From contig CAYVRD010000002.1 of the NCBI GenBank assembly GCA_964454195.1, positions 1-52,935 on the forward strand: 52,935 nucleotides of DNA. The letters are read 5' to 3'. A model generated the notes under the pieces. The model did not search any database and was not told where the DNA came from. It was given only the letters and a program-made list of their open reading frames with translations. The first letter of the stretch is position 1; the number at the start of each line of letters is the position of its first letter. This stretch comes from an uncultured Clostridia bacterium. Its GTDB lineage: Bacteria; Bacillota; Desulfitisporia; Desulfitisporales; JAWSUQ01. The translations under genes and the position numbers were made by a program. Of the stretch, positions 28,505-37,812 are shown in pieces.

Positions 28505-28531
28505 GTGACAAAGGGACGGGGCTATTGTCAC
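28505..28531. repeat. Left inverted repeat, itself a REP-like hairpin
   Basis: In GTGACAA-aggga cggggcta-TTGTCAC, 7-bp arms close a 13-nt loop. The repeat ends 1 nt before the transposase stop codon (28533-28535), and its other edge lies 13 nt upstream of the JetD-like ATG (28491). Confidence 0.8.
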
Positions 28532-28532
28532 G

Positions 28533-29309
28533 TTACACTCTTTGAATTATCCCCCTGCCAATTCCTGTTATTCTCTCAATCTGTCTAATTGATAATCCAT
28601 ATCTTTTCTTAAGGGTTTTTATGTATATATTTCTTTGGTTTATGTCTAACTTTTGTAGATCTATAGCTTGATCAAGCTTACAGTGCTCCTTGATTATTTT
28701 TCTAGCATCATCATCTGTTAATCTCCGCTTTTCAGGTATATCCATACATTCATCATCACTCCCAGTGTTTACGTACTCAACAAAGTACCTTACTGCTTGT
28801 ATTCTATCTTTACTAAAAATATCAAGGGCAAAGTCAATATCACTCTTTTTGCTGTTACTTATTTCAGAATAGTCATTGTAATTAGTCCATTTATAATCTG
28901 AAATTTTAGTTGCTATTCCAGCCTTTATAGGGTTTTGAAATATATAACGAAGTGCTGTAAGAAAGTATGCATCATCCTCTACAGGTTCGCTTTTATAGCG
29001 ATCTTGAAATAAGTACCCTACTCTGTCATATTTTTTGTTATACCATAAAACATAGCTACTGCATATCCTTCTCATTACAATTTCTAATGGTTCCTTACCT
29101 TCCATTAATAGTAAATGTAAATGATTACCCATTAGACAATAGGCATATATCTTATAGCCACTAATCTCCTTGTATTTTTGCAAGGTCTGAACAAACCTAG
29201 CGTAATCTTCCTTATCCTCAAAAAGAGATTGACGATTTATTCCTCTCATAATAATATGATATATTCCACTTTTACTTTTTATCCTTGCTGTTCTTGGCAA
29301 TACAATCAC
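28533..29309 (-). CDS. REP-associated tyrosine transposase-like (IS200/IS605 Y1 HUH family) protein with a C-terminal DnaA-C-like HTH
   Basis: The protein has the HUH motif GNHLHLLL and the catalytic Tyr context LFQDRYKSEPV. Its N-terminus PRTARIKSKSGIYHIIMRGINRQ is typical, and the C-terminal end reads LSIRQIERITGIGRGIIQRV. The track start is a GTG at 29309. A TTG at 29298-29300 behind GGGGTGA would give the typical (M)PRTARIK N-terminus. Confidence 0.85.
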   Translation of the reverse strand: MIVLPRTARIKSKSGIYHIIMRGINRQSLFEDKEDYARFVQTLQKYKEISGYKIYAYCLMGNHLHLLLMEGKEPLEIVMRRICSSYVLWYNKKYDRVGYLFQDRYKSEPVEDDAYFLTALRYIFQNPIKAGIATKISDYKWTNYNDYSEISNSKKSDIDFALDIFSKDRIQAVRYFVEYVNTGSDDECMDIPEKRRLTDDDARKIIKEHCKLDQAIDLQKLDINQRNIYIKTLKKRYGLSIRQIERITGIGRGIIQRV

Positions 29310-29320
29310 CCCTATGGTAA

Positions 29321-29348
29321 ACTATACCACAGTGATGGTTTATGTCAA
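29321..29348 (-). promoter_or_regulatory. Near-consensus sigma-A promoter driving the RAYT gene and possibly the downstream array
   Basis: The minus strand reads TTGACA (29343-29348), then 16 nt, then TGgTATAGT with the -10 hexamer at 29321-29326. The -35 hexamer is partly contributed by the right inverted repeat. Confidence 0.5.
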
Positions 29349-29368
29349 TAGCCCCGTCCCTTTGTCAC
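29346..29368. repeat. Right inverted repeat of the RAYT unit
   Basis: This is the exact reverse complement of 28505-28527. Confidence 0.8.
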
Positions 29369-29401
29369 TTATCTGAATACTGTATTTCACAAGAAACTAT
29401 A

Positions 29402-29430
29402 TTGACCGTCCAGCTTGGGTATGATATATT
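29402..29430 (+). promoter_or_regulatory. Candidate sigma-A promoter of the amine-utilisation operon
   Basis: TTGACC (29402-29407) is separated by 17 nt from TATATT (29425-29430). Confidence 0.5.
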
Positions 29431-29492
29431 TTAGTTATTATTAGTTCAAACAGCATATATGTTTTGGGCAAAGATGTTCAAAAGTAAAAAGC

Positions 29493-29541
29493 AACGACGC
29501 TTTGAAAAGTATTTATACTTTTTGGAGCGTCGTTTTTTTTT
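29493..29541 (+). terminator. Intrinsic terminator inside the operon leader (candidate attenuator)
   Basis: A 19-bp stem pairs 29493-29511 with 29516-29534 (16 Watson-Crick and 3 G-U pairs) around a 4-nt loop. A run of 9 T's at 29533-29541 begins with the last two stem positions. The structure lies 39 nt upstream of the ATG at 29581, and no upstream plus-strand gene exists for it to terminate. Confidence 0.7.
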
Positions 29542-29580
29542 ATACTTTCATTAAAAAACATTTTCAAAGGAGTGATAACC

Positions 29581-30960
29581 ATGAAAAACCCAGCAACTAT
29601 GGATCAAACAACGGGCTACAACAAGCTGACAAAGGAGGATGTAAAGCGCTTAATAGTCGAGCACCAAATTGAGACGATTCGCTTGGAATATGTAGATTTG
29701 AACGGTGTCAATAGAGGAAAGCTATTGCCTGCTGATATGATTGACGTAATCTTTGATGATGGCATTGCCTTTGCCGCAGCAGTAATGGCTATTTGCTTTG
29801 ACAACAATGTGGCCCAAGTCAAAGGGCTTACCGAGTACAATTACGATGATATGAAGGTTATCGCCGATCCGTCTACCTTCTTAATAATGCCTTATATAGA
29901 AAAGACTGCTCTATTGCTGGGAGATCTCTATTATCACAAAAAACCAATGAACCAGTCTCCCCGTTGGTTTTTGAAGAAAATGATAAAAGAGTATAACGAT
30001 TTAGGGTTAAATCCTATTGCTGCCAGTGAGCTGGAGTTTTTCCTATTTAAAAAGACGCCCCAGGGGGACTATCCTCCCTACACTAATCAGACGGGCAATG
30101 TCTATACCAGCAATATCCGCATCGACCCCCAGGGCTTTCTTTACAAGCTAACTAAGACCCTTAAGACCATGGATTTTCAAGTGCTCTATATGAACCACGA
30201 GTTTTATCCTGGGCAGTACGAGTACAATTGGAGTCATGGACCGGTACTGCGAAACGCTGATGAAACAAGTCTTTTTAAAGGCGTGTGCAAAGAAATAGCA
30301 GAGCAAAACGATCTTTTTGCCACCTTTATGGCTAGACCAAAAAACGAGAATGGCGGCAGCGGAGCCCATTACCACTTATCTCTTAATGATTTGTTCACTG
30401 GAGAAAATCTATTTTATGATAAAAACGACTCCCATCAAATGTCTCCTTTGATGTATAGCTTTGTGGCTGGAGTATTAAAGCATGCCAAAGCTTTAACTGC
30501 CTTTTTGGCACCAACAGTTAACTGCTACAAGCGTTTTTTACCTAACTCCTTTGCCCCATGTCATGTGGGCTGGGGTTATGACAACCGCACCACCTACATT
30601 AGAATTCCTGAGGATCGGGGCAAAGGTACCCGAGTTGAGGTGCGAGCCGGCAGCGCTGCCTCTAACCCCTATTTAGCTTTAGCAGGCATTTTAGCAGCAG
30701 GCTTAGATGGTATAAAAAATAATCTGACACCTCCGGATATAATCACCACTGACCTTTATAACGACGCTACTGTTCAAAAAGAAATCATTCCAAAAAGCTT
30801 GTTTAGAGCCTTACAGGAGCTGTCTAATGACGAATGGCTGTGTGAGTGCGCTGGGGAGGATTTGATTAATAACTTTGTGGAAATTAAGACTATTGAGGTA
30901 GATACATTTACCACTACTGTTACCGATTGGGAATGGAAGAATTATTCGTACCATATATAG
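29581..30960 (+). CDS. Glutamine synthetase-family gamma-glutamyl-amine ligase (GmaS/PuuA-like)
   Basis: The protein has a GS catalytic-domain layout (ELEFFLF, NHEFYPGQYEYN, GSGAHYHLSL, NCYKRF, DNRTTYIRIP). The track start is a GTG at 29572. AAAGGAG at 29566-29572 plus an 8-nt spacer favours the ATG at 29581. Confidence 0.8.
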   Translation: MKNPATMDQTTGYNKLTKEDVKRLIVEHQIETIRLEYVDLNGVNRGKLLPADMIDVIFDDGIAFAAAVMAICFDNNVAQVKGLTEYNYDDMKVIADPSTFLIMPYIEKTALLLGDLYYHKKPMNQSPRWFLKKMIKEYNDLGLNPIAASELEFFLFKKTPQGDYPPYTNQTGNVYTSNIRIDPQGFLYKLTKTLKTMDFQVLYMNHEFYPGQYEYNWSHGPVLRNADETSLFKGVCKEIAEQNDLFATFMARPKNENGGSGAHYHLSLNDLFTGENLFYDKNDSHQMSPLMYSFVAGVLKHAKALTAFLAPTVNCYKRFLPNSFAPCHVGWGYDNRTTYIRIPEDRGKGTRVEVRAGSAASNPYLALAGILAAGLDGIKNNLTPPDIITTDLYNDATVQKEIIPKSLFRALQELSNDEWLCECAGEDLINNFVEIKTIEVDTFTTTVTDWEWKNYSYHI

Positions 30961-30996
30961 TACCCCTTAATCGTATACTGGGAAGGAGATAAACAC

Positions 30997-31899
30997 ATGT
31001 GTGGGATAGCTGGAATAATCAATAAACAGGGTATGGAGATATCCACTAAGCTATTAGAAATGCTTTCTTTAATACAGCATCGGGGAATGGATGCCACTGG
31101 AATAGCTGTATATTATCAGAAGGATGATTCTTTGATCGATTTACGGGTGGCAGAAACAAAGAAAGATATGCATTCTACCCTGCTAAAGGTCTTAGGGCAG
31201 TATAGCTCGGTGCTGGAAGAAAAATCCTATGTAAAAAACCTTCTAGTTTCTTTTACTGAGGCTCGTCTAAAAATGGCAGAGGAGGATCTTCCCCAGCTCC
31301 ACGCAGCCATTAATCGGATCGATGGTCTCTATGTTCACTCCCTGGGCAGGGGAATTAAGGTCTACAAGGACGGGGGCACTACTAAAGATCTGCTGGCAGT
31401 CCACCAAATCGGTCAGTCCATAGCTACCCACGGTATGGGACACGTGCGCTTGGCCACTGAAAGCGCAGAGGACATCAATGCTGCTCATCCCTTTGTATCA
31501 CCTTTTTATCCCCAGCTGTCCATCGTCCACAATGGGCAGTTTACCAACTATTTTAATGTTAGAAGATATTTAGAAAGCAAAGGAGCCATCTTTAAGACCA
31601 TGAATGATTCTGAGGCAGCTAGTCACCTTATCGCTTATGCAATGGCCAACAACGGTGGCGACTTAGAAAGTGCCCTAAGCTTTGCTTTAAATGAGCTTGA
31701 CGGCATCTTCTGTATTATGGCCTCCACTGACAATCAGTTTGGCTTTGTTAAGGATAAGCTAGGCATCAAGCCTTTATTAGTTTTTGAAACAGAGGACATT
31801 ATCATGTTTGGCTCAGAGCAAATTGAGTTTACGGCCTTACACCCTGATGTGTTTGCCGAAGAAATGGAACCGGGGGAGATGCGGGTATGGAGTATATAA
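30997..31899 (+). CDS. Class-II (Ntn) glutamine amidotransferase domain protein (GlxA/MgsA-like)
   Basis: The N-terminal MCGIAGI carries the nucleophile Cys2. The protein is 300 aa and has a GGAAGGAG RBS. Confidence 0.85.
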   Translation: MCGIAGIINKQGMEISTKLLEMLSLIQHRGMDATGIAVYYQKDDSLIDLRVAETKKDMHSTLLKVLGQYSSVLEEKSYVKNLLVSFTEARLKMAEEDLPQLHAAINRIDGLYVHSLGRGIKVYKDGGTTKDLLAVHQIGQSIATHGMGHVRLATESAEDINAAHPFVSPFYPQLSIVHNGQFTNYFNVRRYLESKGAIFKTMNDSEAASHLIAYAMANNGGDLESALSFALNELDGIFCIMASTDNQFGFVKDKLGIKPLLVFETEDIIMFGSEQIEFTALHPDVFAEEMEPGEMRVWSI

Positions 31900-32612
31900 A
31901 TGCTAAAGCTATGGATACTAGAACACTAAACAAAGCTATAGCCCTCTCTTTAAAAGCCTCAGGTAGAGCAGTGGTAACAAACCCCCACTCTATGCACAAC
32001 ATTGCTGCAGGCTTAACAGATGCAGGTCAAATAATCATTCAGGGCAGTACCGGATTCTACACTGGAGGCTTTCTAGAAGGTCCTAGTATTTTAGTTGAAG
32101 GCAATGCCGGTTGGTATGCAGGAGACAACATGATGGATGGTCAACTAATAATCTCCAAAAACGCCGGCTGCAATGCGGGAACCTATCTTTGCGGCGGCAC
32201 TATCCTTATTCGGGGCAATGCCGGCAGCAGAACTGGTTATGCCATGAAAGGCGGCACTATCCTAGTCTGCGGTTCTGTAGGACGTTGGTCCGGTCAGATG
32301 ACCATGGGCGGGCAACTGGTGGTTTTAGGTGAGGTGGGCAAGCAAATAGGCGAATCCATGTATAAGGGTGTTATTTATGTCCGGGATCAGCAGGCTGCAG
32401 AAAAGCTGGGGGGAAATGTCTATCTTGATAGCATCACAGTGGAAGAGGTTAATCAGCTGCAGCAGCTTTTTGATAAGTACCAGCTGGAGGCTACTCCCAA
32501 GGAGTTTAAGGCAATCCGCCCCTGCCGAGAAGAGCGCCACAGCTATAGCCTGTTTACTCCCCAACTAAAGCCTCATTTGGCCAGAAAATTCAATGTGAGA
32601 GGAGATGCTTAA
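31887..32612 (+). CDS. GXGXG-repeat protein (glutamate synthase alpha-subunit C-terminal domain type; GlxC/MgsB-like)
   Basis: The protein has reiterated G-x-G beta-helix turns (GNAGWYAGDNMMDGQLIISKNAGCNAGTYLCGGTILIRGNAGSRTGYAMKGGTILVCG). It overlaps the upstream gene by 13 nt. Confidence 0.85.
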   Translation: MEYINAKAMDTRTLNKAIALSLKASGRAVVTNPHSMHNIAAGLTDAGQIIIQGSTGFYTGGFLEGPSILVEGNAGWYAGDNMMDGQLIISKNAGCNAGTYLCGGTILIRGNAGSRTGYAMKGGTILVCGSVGRWSGQMTMGGQLVVLGEVGKQIGESMYKGVIYVRDQQAAEKLGGNVYLDSITVEEVNQLQQLFDKYQLEATPKEFKAIRPCREERHSYSLFTPQLKPHLARKFNVRGDA

Positions 32613-32614
32613 TC

Positions 32615-33931
32615 ATGACCACAGCTAAGATATCAGAGCCAAAAGATGTGCAAAGGGGCGTTTGGAATCAAGAGACAGTGGCAGAAATCCAATACAAGGC
32701 CACCAACGGCAAGCACCGCATCCGAGGCTGCGGCTCGGTACGCTCCATGCCCACCTTCGACGATATTATGATTCTCCCCTCCCAGCTCAGCCGAATGTCC
32801 TTGGATACCTATAGAGAGCATTGCGATACCACTACTGTATTAGGTCAACGCTTTGCCTCAAAACCGTTGGAAATAGAAACCCCTATAATGATAGCTGGTA
32901 TGTCCTATGGAGCTTTGAGCAAGGAGGCTAAAATAGCCTTAGCCAAGGCTACAGCCTTAACAGGTACAGTAATTAGCAACGGTGAGGGAGGGCTATTGCC
33001 TGAAGAGCTGGAAAACTCCTACCGACAATCAATCCAAATTTTACCTAGCCGCTTTGGCTTAAATAAACGCAGCATAGAAGTGGCTGACATGCTGGAGTTT
33101 CTGGTGGGTATCGGCGCAAAACCCGGTCTGTCTGGCCACCTCATGGGTAGCAAAATTTCACCTGAAATAGCCCAGTTCAGGCAAATTCCTGTTGGTATTG
33201 ATTTGCATAGCCATCCTCGCCACGGTGATTGCTTTGGAGCAGATGACATGGTGGTAAAAGTGGAGCAAATTCGAGAATTGACCAACGGGGAGGTTCCAAT
33301 TTTCCTAAAAATTGCTGCGGGCAGAGTTAAGGAGGATGTGAAGATAGCCTTCAAGGTTGGAGTAGATGGCATCATCATTGATGGAGCTCAAGGGGGAACA
33401 GGGGCTGCTCCAGTAATGGCGACAGACCACCTGGGTATTCCCACCATGCCCGCCTTGGTACAGGCCGTGCGAACCTTAGAGGAAATGGGTATCAAAGATC
33501 AGTTTAGCATTATCATCTCTGGGGGCATCAAAGACGGTGCTGACCTGGCAAAGGCTCTAGCCATGGGAGCTGACGCTGTGGCCATTGGTACCGGTGCCAT
33601 GGTGGCCATGGGTTGCCGAGTCTGTCTAAGGTGTCATACAGGCATCTGCCCCTACGGCATTGGCACTCAAAAGCCAGAGCTACGAGAAAGACTAGATATA
33701 GACTTGGCTGCTGAGAGAGTAGCCAATTATATCAAAGCCATAACCTGCGAGGCTGTGCTCCTAGCAAAGGCTGCAGGAAAAACAAAGCTAAAAAACTTAG
33801 AACGGGAAGACTTGCGAGCTTTAACTATTGAAGCCTCCGCCATGACCGGCATTCCCTTAGTGGGAACAGATTTAGTATTTGGTCAACGTTACGGCTTTGG
33901 AGAAAGTCATAAAGGGGGCTGTTGTATATGA
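32615..33931 (+). CDS. FMN-binding glutamate synthase-family protein (GlxD/MgsC-like)
   Basis: The 438-aa protein has the blocks GMSYGALS, IIIDGAQGGTGAAP and ISGGIKDGADLAKALAMGADAV, which are typical of the GltB FMN domain. Confidence 0.85.
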   Translation: MTTAKISEPKDVQRGVWNQETVAEIQYKATNGKHRIRGCGSVRSMPTFDDIMILPSQLSRMSLDTYREHCDTTTVLGQRFASKPLEIETPIMIAGMSYGALSKEAKIALAKATALTGTVISNGEGGLLPEELENSYRQSIQILPSRFGLNKRSIEVADMLEFLVGIGAKPGLSGHLMGSKISPEIAQFRQIPVGIDLHSHPRHGDCFGADDMVVKVEQIRELTNGEVPIFLKIAAGRVKEDVKIAFKVGVDGIIIDGAQGGTGAAPVMATDHLGIPTMPALVQAVRTLEEMGIKDQFSIIISGGIKDGADLAKALAMGADAVAIGTGAMVAMGCRVCLRCHTGICPYGIGTQKPELRERLDIDLAAERVANYIKAITCEAVLLAKAAGKTKLKNLEREDLRALTIEASAMTGIPLVGTDLVFGQRYGFGESHKGGCCI

Positions 33932-34248
33932 GAATAGCTCATCACCCGGTCTTAGGATTAATTGATAAGGGGCGAAGGGTCAGCTTTTACCACGATGGCA
34001 AGCTGTTAGAAGGCTTTGAAGGAGAACCAATCTCTGTGGCGCTAAAGGCTAACGGCATTATTACCCATAGATATACCGCTGTGCGTCAAGAGCCTAGAGG
34101 CGTTTTTTGCGCCATTGGCCGCTGCACTGACTGCGTTATGGTAGTAGACGGCAAGCCCAACGTTCGTACTTGTGTCACCCCCCTTGAAGAAGGCATGCAG
34201 GTTCAGACCCAATACGGGATAAAATCGAATAAGGATGAGGCCATATGA
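33928..34248 (+). CDS. Small (2Fe-2S)-binding subunit (sarcosine-oxidase-alpha N-terminal / HcnA-like)
   Basis: The protein carries the FCAIGRCTDCVMVVDGKPNVRTC motif. The track start is a TTG at 33922. An ATG at 33928 overlaps the upstream stop (ATATGA). Confidence 0.7.
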   Translation: MRIAHHPVLGLIDKGRRVSFYHDGKLLEGFEGEPISVALKANGIITHRYTAVRQEPRGVFCAIGRCTDCVMVVDGKPNVRTCVTPLEEGMQVQTQYGIKSNKDEAI

Positions 34249-35852
34249 AAAGATATGATGTTATTGTCATAGGTGCAGGACCCGCTGGCCTCTCAGCTGC
34301 CATTGTTGCCGCCTCAAAGGGCATGAGCACTCTGGTGTTCGATGAAAATGATCGGCCGGGAGGACAGCTGTTTAAACAGATTCATAAGTTTTTTGGCTCA
34401 AAAGAACACAAGGCAAAAATCAGAGGCTTTAAAATCGGCCAGATGCTGTTGGCAGAAGCTCAACAGCTAGGAGTTCAGGTAGAGCTAAATGCCACAGTAA
34501 TTGGCTTGTTTCCAAATAAAGAAATATCTGTAATGCAAAATGATACCATCCTCCACTACCGGGCTAATAGCATTGTCATAGCTACGGGAGCATCTGAAAA
34601 CATGATTCCCTTTCCTGGTTGGACTTTGCCGGGAGTGATGGGAGCAGGAGCAGCTCAGACCATGATGAATATCCACGGTATTAAGCCTGGGCAAAACATC
34701 CTCATGGTAGGCTCAGGCAACGTAGGTGTAGTGGTGGGCTATCAGCTTTTACAAGCAGGTTGTCAGCTAGCAGGAGTAATAGATGCTGCCCCTGTCATAG
34801 GTGGCTACGGAGTACATGCAGCCAAAATAGCCCGAATGGGAGTTCCTTTCTATTTATCCCACACTATAGTGGGTGCTTACGGCACTGAGAAAGTGGAAAA
34901 AGCTGTTATTGCTAAAGTTGATAAAAACTGGTCTGTCTTGCCTGGCACTGAGCAAGAGCTAGCTGTAGACACGGTTTGCTTAGCTGTGGGATTGACTCCT
35001 TCAGTACAGTTGGCCAAAATGGCTGGCTGCCTGGTGGAAGATGTATCTTGTAAAGGCGGTCTAGTTCCTGCAACCAATGAATATGGAGAAACCTCTGTAT
35101 CTGGCATCTATGTGGCAGGAGATGTGGCGGGTATTGAAGAAGCCAGCTCTGCTATGATTCAAGGAAAAATTGCGGGAATAGCCATTGCCCGAGCCCAGGG
35201 CTATCTTCAGGAATCCGAGTTTACAGCTACCTTTGAACAATTGGGCCACTCCCTATCTCAGCTAAGAGCAGGACAGTTCTGTCATGAAAATAAAGGTCGA
35301 ACCGATTTAGCTGCCACCGATGAGGGATACTCCCTATCCCATAGCCTAATGGTAAATGGCTATTTACTGGAGCAGGAGCTAGCCATGTTTCCAGGAGCAT
35401 CTATTTCTACTGATGCCAATGGGGTATTTCCAGTAGTAGAATGTACTCAAAATATTCCCTGCGATCCTTGCCAAGATGTGTGCAAAAAAGGCTGCATCCA
35501 AGTGGGCCAACGGATTACTAATTTACCCGTGGTAAACCAAGCTAGCTCTTGTAACGGATGTGGCATGTGCGTAGCCTCCTGCCCCGGTCAAGCTATTTTT
35601 TTGGTAGATAGAGGACATGATGCCCACTTGGCAGCAATCTCAATTCCTTATGAAGAGTATCCCCTACCCCAGCCAGGTCACAAGGGAAAAGCATTAGACA
35701 GGGGAGGTCAGGTAGTGGGAGAGGCTCAGGTAGTTAAGGTCAAAACAGCAAAGGCCATGGATCAAACAGCCATCGTTACAATTCAAGTGCCTCAGTCACT
35801 GGCTATGACAGTCCGCTATTTTATTCCTTGGACAGAGGAAGGAGTATGTTGA
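34245..35852 (+). CDS. FAD/NAD(P)-binding oxidoreductase subunit with a C-terminal 4Fe-4S motif (opine-oxidase A / HcnB-like)
   Basis: The protein has VIVIGAGPAGLSAA, a second dinucleotide fold (MVGSGNVGVV) and CNGCGMCVASCP. Its start forms an ATGA overlap with the upstream gene. Confidence 0.8.
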   Translation: MKRYDVIVIGAGPAGLSAAIVAASKGMSTLVFDENDRPGGQLFKQIHKFFGSKEHKAKIRGFKIGQMLLAEAQQLGVQVELNATVIGLFPNKEISVMQNDTILHYRANSIVIATGASENMIPFPGWTLPGVMGAGAAQTMMNIHGIKPGQNILMVGSGNVGVVVGYQLLQAGCQLAGVIDAAPVIGGYGVHAAKIARMGVPFYLSHTIVGAYGTEKVEKAVIAKVDKNWSVLPGTEQELAVDTVCLAVGLTPSVQLAKMAGCLVEDVSCKGGLVPATNEYGETSVSGIYVAGDVAGIEEASSAMIQGKIAGIAIARAQGYLQESEFTATFEQLGHSLSQLRAGQFCHENKGRTDLAATDEGYSLSHSLMVNGYLLEQELAMFPGASISTDANGVFPVVECTQNIPCDPCQDVCKKGCIQVGQRITNLPVVNQASSCNGCGMCVASCPGQAIFLVDRGHDAHLAAISIPYEEYPLPQPGHKGKALDRGGQVVGEAQVVKVKTAKAMDQTAIVTIQVPQSLAMTVRYFIPWTEEGVC

Positions 35853-35853
35853 G

Positions 35854-36204
35854 ATGAGTAGATTAGACAGAACCTTAGCAAAAAATAATCCGCCTTTTAT
35901 CTCTCAGCCTGACGACCATCTACTAATCTGCAGGTGTGAGGAAATAACTAAAGGTCAAATTAGAGCAGCCATCCATGCGGGCATGCACACCATGAACGAA
36001 TTAAGAAAATATTTGCGAACGGGTATGGGCCTATGTCAAGGCCAGACTTGCCACAGATTAGTGCGAGGTATTTTGGCCAGAGAGCTAGGACTTTCTCCAG
36101 GAGATATTGCTTTGCCAACCTCTCGACCACCTAACCGTCCTATTCCTATGGCTGTTTACGCCAGTGACAGCATCAGCTCCAGCAAAGGTGGTGAAACCAA
36201 GTGA
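35854..36204 (+). CDS. BFD-like (2Fe-2S)-binding protein
   Basis: The 116-aa protein carries the CRCEEIT...GMGLCQGQTC cysteine pattern. Confidence 0.7.
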   Translation: MSRLDRTLAKNNPPFISQPDDHLLICRCEEITKGQIRAAIHAGMHTMNELRKYLRTGMGLCQGQTCHRLVRGILARELGLSPGDIALPTSRPPNRPIPMAVYASDSISSSKGGETK

Positions 36205-37322
36205 AAACGGCAGACGTAATAATTATCGGTGGCGGCATTATTGGATGTGCTACTGCCTACTATCTGGCCAAACAGGGCATTATTTCCTTGGTGTTAGAAA
36301 AGGAAGACATTGGCTGGGGCGCTTCCAGTCGCAACGGTGGGGGAATTCGGCAGTCTGCCCGGGATTTACGGGAGCTACCTTTAGCCATGGATGCAGTAAA
36401 AAACCTATGGCCAAGCCTATCTGAGGAACTGGGGGTAGACGTTGAGTACGTACAAAAAGGCAACCTGCGCCTGGGTAAAACTGAGGCTCATAAAGCCACC
36501 CTGGAAAAAATAGTTGATCAAGGTCAGGCAGCTGGCTTAGACCTAAGGATGATTGGGCCAGAGGAGATACGTGAAATATGTCCCCAAGTATCAGAAGAAG
36601 TGATTACAGCCAGCTATTGCCCTACCGACGGCCATGGAAATCCTATGCGATCTACCCTGGCTTATTACAAGCGGGCTAGAGAACTGGGGGTATCCTTTGT
36701 CACTGGTGAAGAGGTTCTATCAATTAATCTCATCAAAGGTAAGGTCAGTGGTGTGCAAACAGACAAGGCCCAATATTGGAGTGACCAGGTACTGCTGGCA
36801 GCAGGCTTAAGCTCTCGCCCTCTAGCCCAAACAGTAGGGTTAGATATTCCCATGCTGAGCGTTCTCACAGAGACCCTGGTAACCGACCAACAGCCCCCCA
36901 TGTTTCCGCAGATGATAGGCACAGCAGCATCAGATTTTTACGGTCACCAAACTACTCATGGTTCCTTTGTGTTTGGCGGCATGACCGGACTAGAGCCCTT
37001 TGCAGCAGAAAAAACAAACCCGGTCAGCACTCCTATTACAGTTCCACACATCTGTCGAGCCATCCTCAAGTATTTCCCTACTTTAGCTCAGACAGCAGTG
37101 ATTAGAACCTGGTCTGGATTTATCGATGATACAGCAGATCATGTGCCTGTATTAAGTAGAGTAGATGAGGTGCCTGGTTTAACCTTGGCCTGTGGTTTTA
37201 GTGGCCACGGCTATGGCATAGCTCCTTCAGTGGGCAGGCTGTTGGCTCAACTGATAACAGACCAACAGCCCTACCTATCCCTGGATGCCTTTAGGTATAA
37301 TCGATTTGGTCCCAAAGGATAA
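36201..37322 (+). CDS. FAD-dependent oxidoreductase, DAO family (sarcosine-oxidase-beta / opine-oxidase B / HcnC-like)
   Basis: The N-terminal VIIIGGGIIGCATAYYLAK is a dinucleotide fold and the protein is 373 aa. The GTG start overlaps the upstream stop (GTGA). Confidence 0.85.
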   Translation: MKTADVIIIGGGIIGCATAYYLAKQGIISLVLEKEDIGWGASSRNGGGIRQSARDLRELPLAMDAVKNLWPSLSEELGVDVEYVQKGNLRLGKTEAHKATLEKIVDQGQAAGLDLRMIGPEEIREICPQVSEEVITASYCPTDGHGNPMRSTLAYYKRARELGVSFVTGEEVLSINLIKGKVSGVQTDKAQYWSDQVLLAAGLSSRPLAQTVGLDIPMLSVLTETLVTDQQPPMFPQMIGTAASDFYGHQTTHGSFVFGGMTGLEPFAAEKTNPVSTPITVPHICRAILKYFPTLAQTAVIRTWSGFIDDTADHVPVLSRVDEVPGLTLACGFSGHGYGIAPSVGRLLAQLITDQQPYLSLDAFRYNRFGPKG

Positions 37323-37352
37323 AAAAACTTAGTTACGAAAGGATGAAAATTT

Positions 37353-37748
37353 ATGGACTTGAAAAGAAGCAGCTATTCCTCAGGTGCGCCACTGGAAGAA
37401 AAGGTGGGCTATAGTCGTGTTGTCAAGGTGGGCCCCTTTGTCTATGTGGGCGGCACCACCTCAGTTCTACCCGACGGAAGCGTATACGGAGAGGGAGACG
37501 GATATGCCCAAACAAAATTTATTCTAGAAAAAATGCTTGGGTTTTTAAACGACGCTGGCGCCCAGAGGGAGGAGGTCATCAAGGTAAAAATCTATGCCAC
37601 AGACATGAGCCGCACTAAGGAGTACATCCAAGCCTACTCAGAAATTTTCAAAGATATTAAGCCCCTGTGCACCTTAGTAGGAATCTCGGCCCTAAACCGA
37701 CCCAGCCAGCTGGTGGAAATAGAGATAGATGCAGTCATCGGCTCGTAA
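37353..37748 (+). CDS. RidA/YjgF-family enamine-imine deaminase-like protein
   Basis: The 131-aa protein shows a family-typical pattern (VKVGPFVYVGGTT..., ...KIYATDM..., ...LVEIEIDAV). Confidence 0.8.
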   Translation: MDLKRSSYSSGAPLEEKVGYSRVVKVGPFVYVGGTTSVLPDGSVYGEGDGYAQTKFILEKMLGFLNDAGAQREEVIKVKIYATDMSRTKEYIQAYSEIFKDIKPLCTLVGISALNRPSQLVEIEIDAVIGS

Positions 37749-37775: not shown

Positions 37776-37812
37776 AGTCTCTTTCGTTTAACGAAAGAGA
37801 CTACTTTTATTT
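37776..37812. terminator. Bidirectional intrinsic terminator between the convergent amine operon and the ABC transporter genes
   Basis: An 11-bp perfect stem forms between agtctctttcg (37776-37786) and cgaaagagact (37792-37802), followed by acTTTTATTT. It overlaps the stop of the ABC ATPase gene. Confidence 0.75.

Follow-up and report, generated by a model that had tools for sequence, protein, structure and literature searches.

The nine-gene operon described here lies at positions 29581-37748 of a 52,935-nucleotide stretch of DNA (the window) from an uncultured Clostridia bacterium (contig CAYVRD010000002.1 of assembly GCA_964454195.1). Its nine plus-strand open reading frames, taken from the ORF listing and named G1 to G9 here, are read from their sequences as a putative anaerobic amine catabolic route that depends on γ-glutamylation and follows the logic of the N-methylglutamate pathway, and the evidence leans towards this reading. 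Most likely, the operon is an accessory one, serves catabolism or nitrogen harvesting in strict anaerobes, and is built from parts different from those of the N-methylglutamate pathway. No description of the nine-gene operon in Clostridia or anaerobes was found in the literature searched.

In the proposed route, the active-site residues of G1 suggest that this enzyme would attach a primary amine, rather than ammonium, to the γ-carboxyl group of glutamate at the expense of ATP. By homology to MgsABC, G2-G4 would then split the γ-glutamyl amide at the Cys1 amidotransferase site and pass the amine to the flavin mononucleotide (FMN) site, where coupling to 2-oxoglutarate and reduction would yield an N-substituted glutamate. 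Homology to PDH1, SoxAB, and opine oxidase points to G5-G8 as a flavin/iron-sulfur (Fe-S) dehydrogenase that would oxidize the new C-N bond on the alkyl side, followed by hydrolysis of the imine to glutamate and an aldehyde. The Fe-S chain could hand the electrons on to G6, the NAD(P)-type flavoprotein, or to ferredoxin, or return them to the Fe-S site of G4, and the arginine-less Rid protein G9 is tentatively placed at the imine step. Overall, the amine nitrogen would enter glutamate without O2 or pyridoxal phosphate (PLP). If this is true, the operon would be an iron-sulfur version of the methylamine pathway of aerobic bacteria, and γ-glutamyl tagging and N-alkylglutamate chemistry would reach from aerobic methylotrophs to strict anaerobes. 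Anaerobic breakdown routes for biogenic amines are poorly known.

G1 (459 residues; 29581-30960) is an ATP-dependent ligase of the glutamine synthetase (GS) family (Gln-synt_C, 334 bits) and a predicted γ-glutamyl-amine ligase. It was aligned with 10 orthologues, GlnA and PuuA of Escherichia coli, two GmaS proteins from canonical N-methylglutamate clusters, and the four other GS-family proteins of the host. The ammonium-site residues D50', S53', Tyr179, and flap E327 (E. coli/Salmonella numbering) are replaced by A, V, V, and F in G1; the role of Asp50' and the flap Glu in defining the use of ammonium is explained in the structural study of GmaS (PMC7948447). The same four positions read A, A, C, and W in GmaS and P, V, V, and Y in PuuA, and the four host paralogs keep the ammonium site, reading D, S/N, Y, and E. 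Phe at position 327 and Cys at position 179 are common to all 10 aligned orthologues, none of which has Asp at position 50; S or T is still present at position 53 in half of them. G1 and its orthologues keep all the ligands of metal, ATP, and glutamate (E129, E131, E212, E220, H269, H271, R321, R339, R344, E357, and R359). A preliminary description of this DNA had set the ligase apart from ammonium-dependent GS and had named retention of the canonical ammonium-site residues among the observations that would speak against it; with these residues gone from G1 and present in the four paralogs, the claim is supported. G1 is predicted to be an ATP-dependent glutamate ligase for a primary amine other than ammonium.

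G1 stays under the cut-off of every curated equivalog model of NCBIfam, among them the GlnA model TIGR00653 (314.2 bits; cut-off, 429.15) and the GmaS model TIGR03105 (318.3 bits; cut-off, 469.6), on which the two true GmaS proteins from canonical clusters, serving as positive controls, reach 686 and 640 bits. The γ-glutamylputrescine synthetase model NF045547 is uninformative, as E. coli PuuA itself is far under its cut-off. Asp177 of GmaS (RhGmaS numbering) is catalytic and strictly conserved among GmaS homologues (PMC7948447). The D-H-E-D residues of GmaS read N-H-E-F/Y in G1 and all its orthologues, with Asn at the Asp177 position. In a quick maximum-likelihood tree, a branch with 96% support in the Shimodaira-Hasegawa-like approximate likelihood ratio test (SH-aLRT) parts the G1 clade from GmaS and GS. 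The TIGR03105 score, the Asn at the Asp177 position, and the separate clade together rule out G1 as a GmaS orthologue.

The ligase gene is followed by a split GltB-type trio. G2 (300 residues; 30997-31899) is a class-II N-terminal nucleophile (Ntn) amidotransferase subunit with GATase_6/7 matches and the N-terminal sequence MCGIAGI, G3 (241 residues; 31887-32612) is a GXGXG subunit (PF01493, 81 bits), and G4 (438 residues; 32615-33931) is an FMN glutamate-synthase-domain subunit (PF01645, 343 bits) with a four-Cys Fe-S site. The reference clusters for the N-methylglutamate pathway are those of Rhizobium phaseoli pRphaN841c (L093) and of the Acidithiobacillus caldus megaplasmid (L094). G2, G3, and G4 show identities of 32, 35, and 46% to MgsA, MgsB, and MgsC of these canonical clusters (the first two values being those for the Rhizobium proteins), compared to 22, 29, and 36% to the split glutamate synthase (GOGAT) of the host. 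The complete subunit set of the MgsABC type, consisting of an amidotransferase with an N-terminal Cys, a GXGXG protein, and an FMN glutamate-synthase-domain protein, is thus present beside a non-ammonium GS-like ligase. The earlier equation of G1-G4 with the gmaS and mgsABC set holds for the trio, which is nearer to MgsABC than to the host GOGAT, and fails for G1, which is not a GmaS orthologue.

Four cysteines of G4 (C334, C337, C340, and C345) are invariant in 14 orthologues and lie where GltB binds its Fe-S cluster; the GltB-type protein of the host has the same four. Their invariance suggests that G4 can probably exchange electrons with a partner. In contrast to MgsC, G4 has the Fe-S cysteines without a 26-residue insertion. 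The MgsC of A. caldus (L094:8001-9359) keeps four cysteines around such an insertion, and that of Rhizobium (L093:8959-10287) has lost all four GltB-type cysteines, so N-methylglutamate synthases differ in their capacity to hold a cluster. A complex prediction for G4 and G6, each entered as an alignment, returned a score of 0.00 with controls not run and says nothing either way.

The next four genes encode the putative dehydrogenase. G5 (106 residues; 33928-34248) is a small 2Fe-2S subunit (Fer2_4; PF13510, 97 bits) resembling HcnA or the N terminus of SoxA, and G6 (535 residues; 34245-35852) is an NAD(P)- and flavin adenine dinucleotide (FAD)-type subunit with two Rossmann domains (Pyr_redox_2, 126 bits) and a C-terminal ferredoxin-like Cys-rich domain. 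The latter contains the Cys motif CNGCGMCVASCP within a weak 4Fe-4S dicluster domain, with weak matches at residues 400-460. G7 (116 residues; 35854-36204) is a BFD-like 2Fe-2S subunit similar to the A3 domain of SoxA (PF04324, Fer2_BFD; PF17806, SO_alpha_A3), and G8 (373 residues; 36201-37322) is an FAD subunit of the DAO family (252 bits), predicted to be the substrate-oxidizing β subunit. G5, G6, and G7 match consecutive stretches of the 996-position SoxA model (10-101, 170-488, and 523-599). G5-G8 thus correspond to SoxB and to the N-terminal 60% of SoxA, the latter divided over three proteins. PDH1 is a heterooligomeric, dye-linked L-proline dehydrogenase (1Y56). The best solved relative of G8 is the PDH1 β subunit of Pyrococcus horikoshii (1Y56_B, 157 bits), with SoxB next (129 bits), and G6 matches SoxA (2GAG_A) and the PDH1 α subunit PH1363 (1Y56_A). 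G8 is 28% identical to MgdA/SoxB and 26% identical to PuuB (77 bits). G6 also gives weak NCBIfam matches to GltD-type FAD/NAD(P) Fe-S proteins.

This combination of a DAO-type β subunit, a Pyr_redox_2 α subunit, and small 2Fe-2S subunits, all encoded together, is the subunit set of the PDH1/opine oxidase/HcnABC type. Other PDH1-like enzymes include the αβγδ proline dehydrogenase of Thermococcus, the opine oxidase OoxAB, the hydrogen cyanide synthase HcnABC, and the D-hydroxyproline dehydrogenase LhpBEF. The genomic context of G5-G8 differs from that of all characterized members; compared to PDH1, the glutamyl-ligase and MgsABC-like front end is encoded alongside, and the α subunit ends in the Cys-rich ferredoxin-like domain. 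MgdABCD of the N-methylglutamate pathway contains a SoxA-type α subunit of ∼980 residues with a C-terminal folate (GcvT-like) domain as well as γ and δ subunits, and all four genes occur in the canonical clusters. The operon, in contrast, has an α subunit split in three with an added ferredoxin-like domain, and its proteins give no Pfam or NCBIfam match to the folate domain, SoxD, or SoxG. The preliminary description was right to assign the dehydrogenase to the opine-oxidase/HcnABC type and not to a folate-containing MgdABCD tetramer; its implication that the two are unrelated does not stand, since G5-G7 align to positions 10-600 of SoxA/MgdC and G8 aligns to SoxB/MgdA.

A further relative is FngABC, an electron-bifurcating oxidoreductase described in 2026 and found mainly in anaerobes, whose FngC is a DUF1667 4Fe-4S subunit (PMC13689815). 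Like the operon, FngABC combines a DAO-type FAD dehydrogenase with a BFD 2Fe-2S domain, a 4Fe-4S module, and an FAD/NAD subunit of the 'cyanogenesis, opine oxidation, G3P dehydrogenation' family (PMC13689815). The operon differs by the lack of a DUF1667 subunit, in place of which G6 has its ferredoxin-like Cys-rich domain, by a separate BFD protein, and by an extra Fer2_4 subunit; the substrate of FngABC is a polyol phosphate, compared to the amine predicted here. DUF1667 (PF07892) has no match anywhere in the host genome, the operon included. If the proposed route is true, it might add an amine-oxidizing member to this redox architecture.

The last gene encodes G9 (131 residues; 37353-37748), a protein of the Rid (YjgF/L-PSP) family (PF01042, Ribonuc_L-PSP, 78 bits) that reaches 52.7 bits on the RidA model TIGR00004, under the cut-off of 106.25. 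G9 has Cys at the position of Arg105 of RidA, and 24 orthologues have Cys, Phe, Leu, or Asn there; the equivalents of Glu120 and Tyr17 are retained. Arg105 is essential for imine hydrolysis by RidA, and arginine-less Rid proteins are not expected to hydrolyze 2-imino acids (PMC4433059). Quenching of a 2-imino acid is thus not what the sequence predicts, and the RidA label and imine-quenching role are not supported in the form proposed before.

The dehydrogenase genes also occur with a different front end. The order Fer2_4, α, BFD, and β is kept across the ∼80 loci fetched with G6, 11 of which show the full nine-gene order. In the other ∼69 (L011-L080), the four dehydrogenase genes are kept, mostly with 43-71% identity (35% for one β subunit, L047), and one or two OCD-family genes stand in place of the ligase and the trio. 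The products match NF004848 above its cut-off, with SbnB as the second-best model, so that in comparison with the nine-gene operon an NAD(P)-type SbnB-like enzyme takes the place of the ATP-driven genes. These sister operons also carry genes for APC-type or PotABCD-like transport, AraC, P-II, Rid, and Fe-type alcohol dehydrogenase; the PotD-like binding protein scores 240 bits, and the APC permeases are of the basic amino acid/polyamine type. They are very widespread in gut and rumen Clostridia, Bacteroidota, and Treponema (e.g., L014:1952-13100 and L029:9600-17200) and are not described in the papers searched. An APC permease cluster, a Rid protein, and a 490-residue helix-turn-helix (HTH) protein are common to both operon types. 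In the β-subunit tree the two types interleave, and the nine-gene type is not one clade and needs two to three changes, which indicates that dehydrogenases closely related to one another have changed their front ends. Anaeromicropila populeti carries both types (L008 and L025).

SbnB belongs to a biosynthetic pathway and acts on N-(2-amino-2-carboxyethyl)-glutamate, which it cleaves oxidatively to 2-oxoglutarate. By analogy, this type of substrate suggests that an N-substituted glutamate may be the product of either front end. A wider idea, offered as a speculative and rather unlikely one, treats the ATP-driven ligase and trio and the SbnB-like NAD(P) enzyme as interchangeable front ends, the amine counterparts of GS-GOGAT and glutamate dehydrogenase. 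Given an amine and 2-oxoglutarate, the two would produce N-substituted glutamates of the same kind, which the shared Fe-S flavoenzyme would cleave on the other side of the nitrogen, the whole acting as a PLP- and O2-independent amine:2-oxoglutarate 'transaminase' of anaerobes. The electrons might return to the FMN subunit at its Fe-S site; alternatively, as in FngABC, they might be confurcated onto NAD together with those of ferredoxin. If the proposed route is true, an Fe-S flavoenzyme family that is very widespread in gut and rumen bacteria would gain its first function.

A marine proteobacterial variant (L099:9001-15714) contains a G1-type ligase, Fer2_4, and two fusions, one of the α subunit with BFD and one of a DAO subunit with a ferredoxin domain. 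The GltB-like trio is missing, and an aldehyde:ferredoxin oxidoreductase gene, which would fit an aldehyde product, and a branched-chain-type ATP-binding cassette (ABC) transporter follow. The G1 clade thus stays linked to the G5-G8 type of dehydrogenase even where the trio is missing. Another glutamyl-tagging amine locus, on plasmid pAA03 of Aminobacter aminovorans (L092:4297-13938), groups a GS-like ligase of another sort with an opine-oxidase-like trio, N-formylglutamate amidohydrolase, and dehydrogenases for aldehyde and alcohol; as a different GS-like system, this ligase was not used as a GmaS reference.

The nine-gene operon is accessory and patchy. Carriers among the loci fetched with G6 include Syntrophomonas, Desulfosporosinus, Anaeromicropila, Acetobacterium, and Intestinibacillus, and exact-protein look-ups find all nine genes also in Desulfoscipio gibsoniae, Halanaerobium hydrogeniformans, Fusibacter paucivorans, and one further metagenome-assembled genome (MAG). 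The contig of a Clostridia MAG shows the first eight genes and then ends. The order is conserved down to 49% identity of G1. The operon is rare: in a sample of 400 other genomes from across the phylum, only 3 yielded a G1 orthologue, and the search of a single genome from the same family found none. The hypothesis is directly testable, as the whole operon is present in several cultured, genome-sequenced anaerobes (D. gibsoniae, H. hydrogeniformans, F. paucivorans, and A. populeti). An APC permease adjoins the operon in most loci, and the protein of ∼490 residues with a weak HTH match is a frequent neighbor as well. In the Syntrophomonas/D. gibsoniae group, genes for a DUF3156 protein and a WD40 β-propeller protein stand between the APC permease and the ligase (L095:6620-9911; L003, L004, and L007), and the Syntrophomonas loci have a class-I amidotransferase-like gene in the same interval upstream of the ligase. 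In F. paucivorans, a GGACT-family (γ-glutamyl cyclotransferase-like) gene directly follows the Rid gene (L097:18335-19327).

As to the substrate of the proposed route, the context speaks weakly for a cationic organic amine taken up from outside, which could be a di- or polyamine, an amino alcohol, or a basic amino acid, rather than for methylamine. Methylamine is not favored because of the missing Asp177, the lack of a folate domain and of purU and folD, and the APC permeases among the neighbors.

Several points weigh against the N-methylglutamate-like route. As G1 fails the GmaS tests, the analogy with that pathway is one of architecture. The intramolecular tunnel of GltB-type enzymes is known for the transfer of ammonia or methylamine and may not readily pass a larger amine, in conflict with the transporter hints. 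The absence of the trio from the marine variant means that the dehydrogenase may act on the γ-glutamyl amide itself, and G9 lacks the arginine needed for the known imine hydrolysis. The host operon, moreover, has no adjoining transporter or regulator, and none of the frequent neighbors is found in the window; tblastn of the host genome (90% complete) finds no homologue of the APC permease or of the 490-residue HTH protein of related loci. The SbnB-like enzyme and the PotD-like protein of related loci have no homologue in the host genome in the same search either.

Other orders and substrates can be set against this route. A scheme like that of E. coli PuuABCD, which is judged unlikely, would have G1 mask one amino group of a di- or polyamine in the form of a γ-glutamyl amide. 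In the manner of PuuB, G5-G8 would then oxidize this amide to an aldehyde at its distal amine or at another C-N bond, with the trio acting last to remove the glutamyl tag and salvage the nitrogen. PuuABCD likewise has an ATP-dependent γ-glutamyl tagging ligase without an ammonium site, and G1, which is 29% identical to PuuA, has an insertion of 11 residues in the D50 loop that is common to PuuA and absent from GmaS and GS. The proteobacterial relative, with its ligase, dehydrogenase, and aldehyde:ferredoxin oxidoreductase but no trio, the PotD-like binding proteins and polyamine-type permeases of the sister operons, and the GGACT-family gene just downstream in F. paucivorans would all suit this order. 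However, the dehydrogenase type differs from PuuB, G8 being nearer to PDH1 β and SoxB, and a GltB-like trio is present, whose FMN and GXGXG subunits would be left without an obvious task. PuuC- and PuuD-type genes are missing from the window, and no aldehyde dehydrogenase stands beside the nine-gene form in the loci inspected. Ligases of other γ-glutamylation routes are Streptomyces GlnA2, GlnA3, and GlnA4 and Pseudomonas IpuC.

A true N-methylglutamate pathway for methylamine, moved into anaerobes with a folate-independent dehydrogenase, appears quite improbable. The pathway of aerobic methylotrophs (GmaS, MgsABC, and MgdABCD) does share with the operon a clustered GS-fold ligase without an ammonium site, a three-subunit split GltB, a SoxB-like flavoprotein, and parts homologous to the N-terminal 600 residues of SoxA; G4 is particularly close to MgsC, and GltB-type tunnels generally suit small amines. 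Against this stand the placement of G1 outside the GmaS equivalog and in a separate clade, its Asn at the Asp177 position, and the F or Y where GmaS has Asp after Glu (PMC7948447), as well as the missing folate-binding domain. Both canonical clusters contain purU and folD, whereas the operon has neither nearby, and its hosts are strict anaerobes. The usual neighbors are APC permeases, of which methylamine is not a typical substrate.

It is very doubtful that the operon is an unconventional GS-GOGAT system, in which G5-G8 would deaminate an amino acid, the ligase and trio would assimilate the ammonium, and the dehydrogenase would supply the two electrons of GOGAT. G4 retains its four Fe-S cysteines without the MgsC insertion, like the GltB-type protein of the host, G6 resembles GltD-type proteins, and a P-II gene occurs in sister operons, all in keeping with such a system. 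However, the residues that bind and deprotonate ammonium are missing from G1, as they are in all 16 orthologues examined, and the trio is nearer to MgsABC than to GOGAT. The host has five GS-family genes in all, the other four, which are intact, lying on contigs C133, C23 (two copies), and C158, and contig C12 encodes a separate archaeal-type split GOGAT with an N-terminal ferredoxin domain, so the G1-G4 set is not needed for ammonium assimilation. A biosynthetic operon, in which the ligase and trio would build an N-substituted glutamate (an opine-like solute or a metallophore precursor) for tailoring by the dehydrogenase, recalls the biosynthetic role of SbnB but is highly improbable, as synthetase, exporter, and tailoring genes are missing alongside, the neighbors are uptake permeases and regulators, and the patchy accessory distribution fits catabolism of an occasional nutrient.

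The operon is tightly packed, as had been noted before. The G1/G2 junction, read from the sequence, has a gap of 36 nucleotides (nt) with GGAGA ahead of the ATG, G2 and G3 overlap by 13 nt, and 2 nt separate G3 from G4. ATGA overlaps join G4 to G5 and G5 to G6; the former places the start of G5 at the ATG at 33928 and not at the TTG at 33922. A gap of 1 nt at G6/G7, a GTGA overlap at G7/G8, and a gap of 30 nt at G8/G9 complete the series, so that four of the eight junctions overlap and the remaining gaps are at most 36 nt. The domains previously named for all nine genes are confirmed by Pfam and NCBIfam.

A sigma-70-like promoter candidate on the plus strand (TTGACC, 17 nt, and TATATT with a TG extension; 29402-29430) agrees with the consensus at 10 of 12 positions in a consensus scan. 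It is followed in the terminator scan by a leader hairpin of 19 pairs (29493-29534) and a T-run, a feature on the same strand that spans 29493-29543 and ends 38 nt ahead of the first ATG. The fold z-score for 29400-29585 is -3.9. As there is no plus-strand gene upstream of the promoter-like site for it to terminate, the hairpin is a possible attenuator. Across the window, every Rfam family stays under its gathering score, the leader giving no more than chance-level matches to microRNAs and small RNAs, and no TnrA/GlnR box (TGTNA-N7-TNACA) with at most one mismatch occurs in the leader, counts across the window being at chance. Terminator-like hairpins also stand upstream in some related loci, among which no defensible common leader motif was found. 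A plus-strand terminator-like hairpin of 12 pairs with a T-rich tail (37776-37802; terminator scan) ends the operon, and the next gene is a convergent ABC-transporter gene.

The G+C content of the operon is 0.467, compared to 0.399 for the rest of the window, and values at third codon positions range from 0.40 to 0.56 in the operon genes and from 0.35 to 0.47 in other genes. As the latter ranges overlap, composition is not decisive as a sign of transfer. The host genome is a 2.3-Mb MAG, 90% complete, and the RecA that it encodes shares 85% identity with MAG proteins from uncultured Clostridia/Bacillota, which supports the Firmicute host assumed earlier. Sequencing runs that contain the stretch are DNA metagenomes of activated sludge and wastewater, with no RNA run among those listed. 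Upstream on the minus strand, an IS200/Y1-type (RAYT-like) transposase gene (28533-29309), bracketed by perfect 23-bp inverted repeats (28505-28527 and 29346-29368), occupies the position that the permease and regulator genes of the operon hold in related loci. A Wadjet-like defense operon also lies upstream on that strand.

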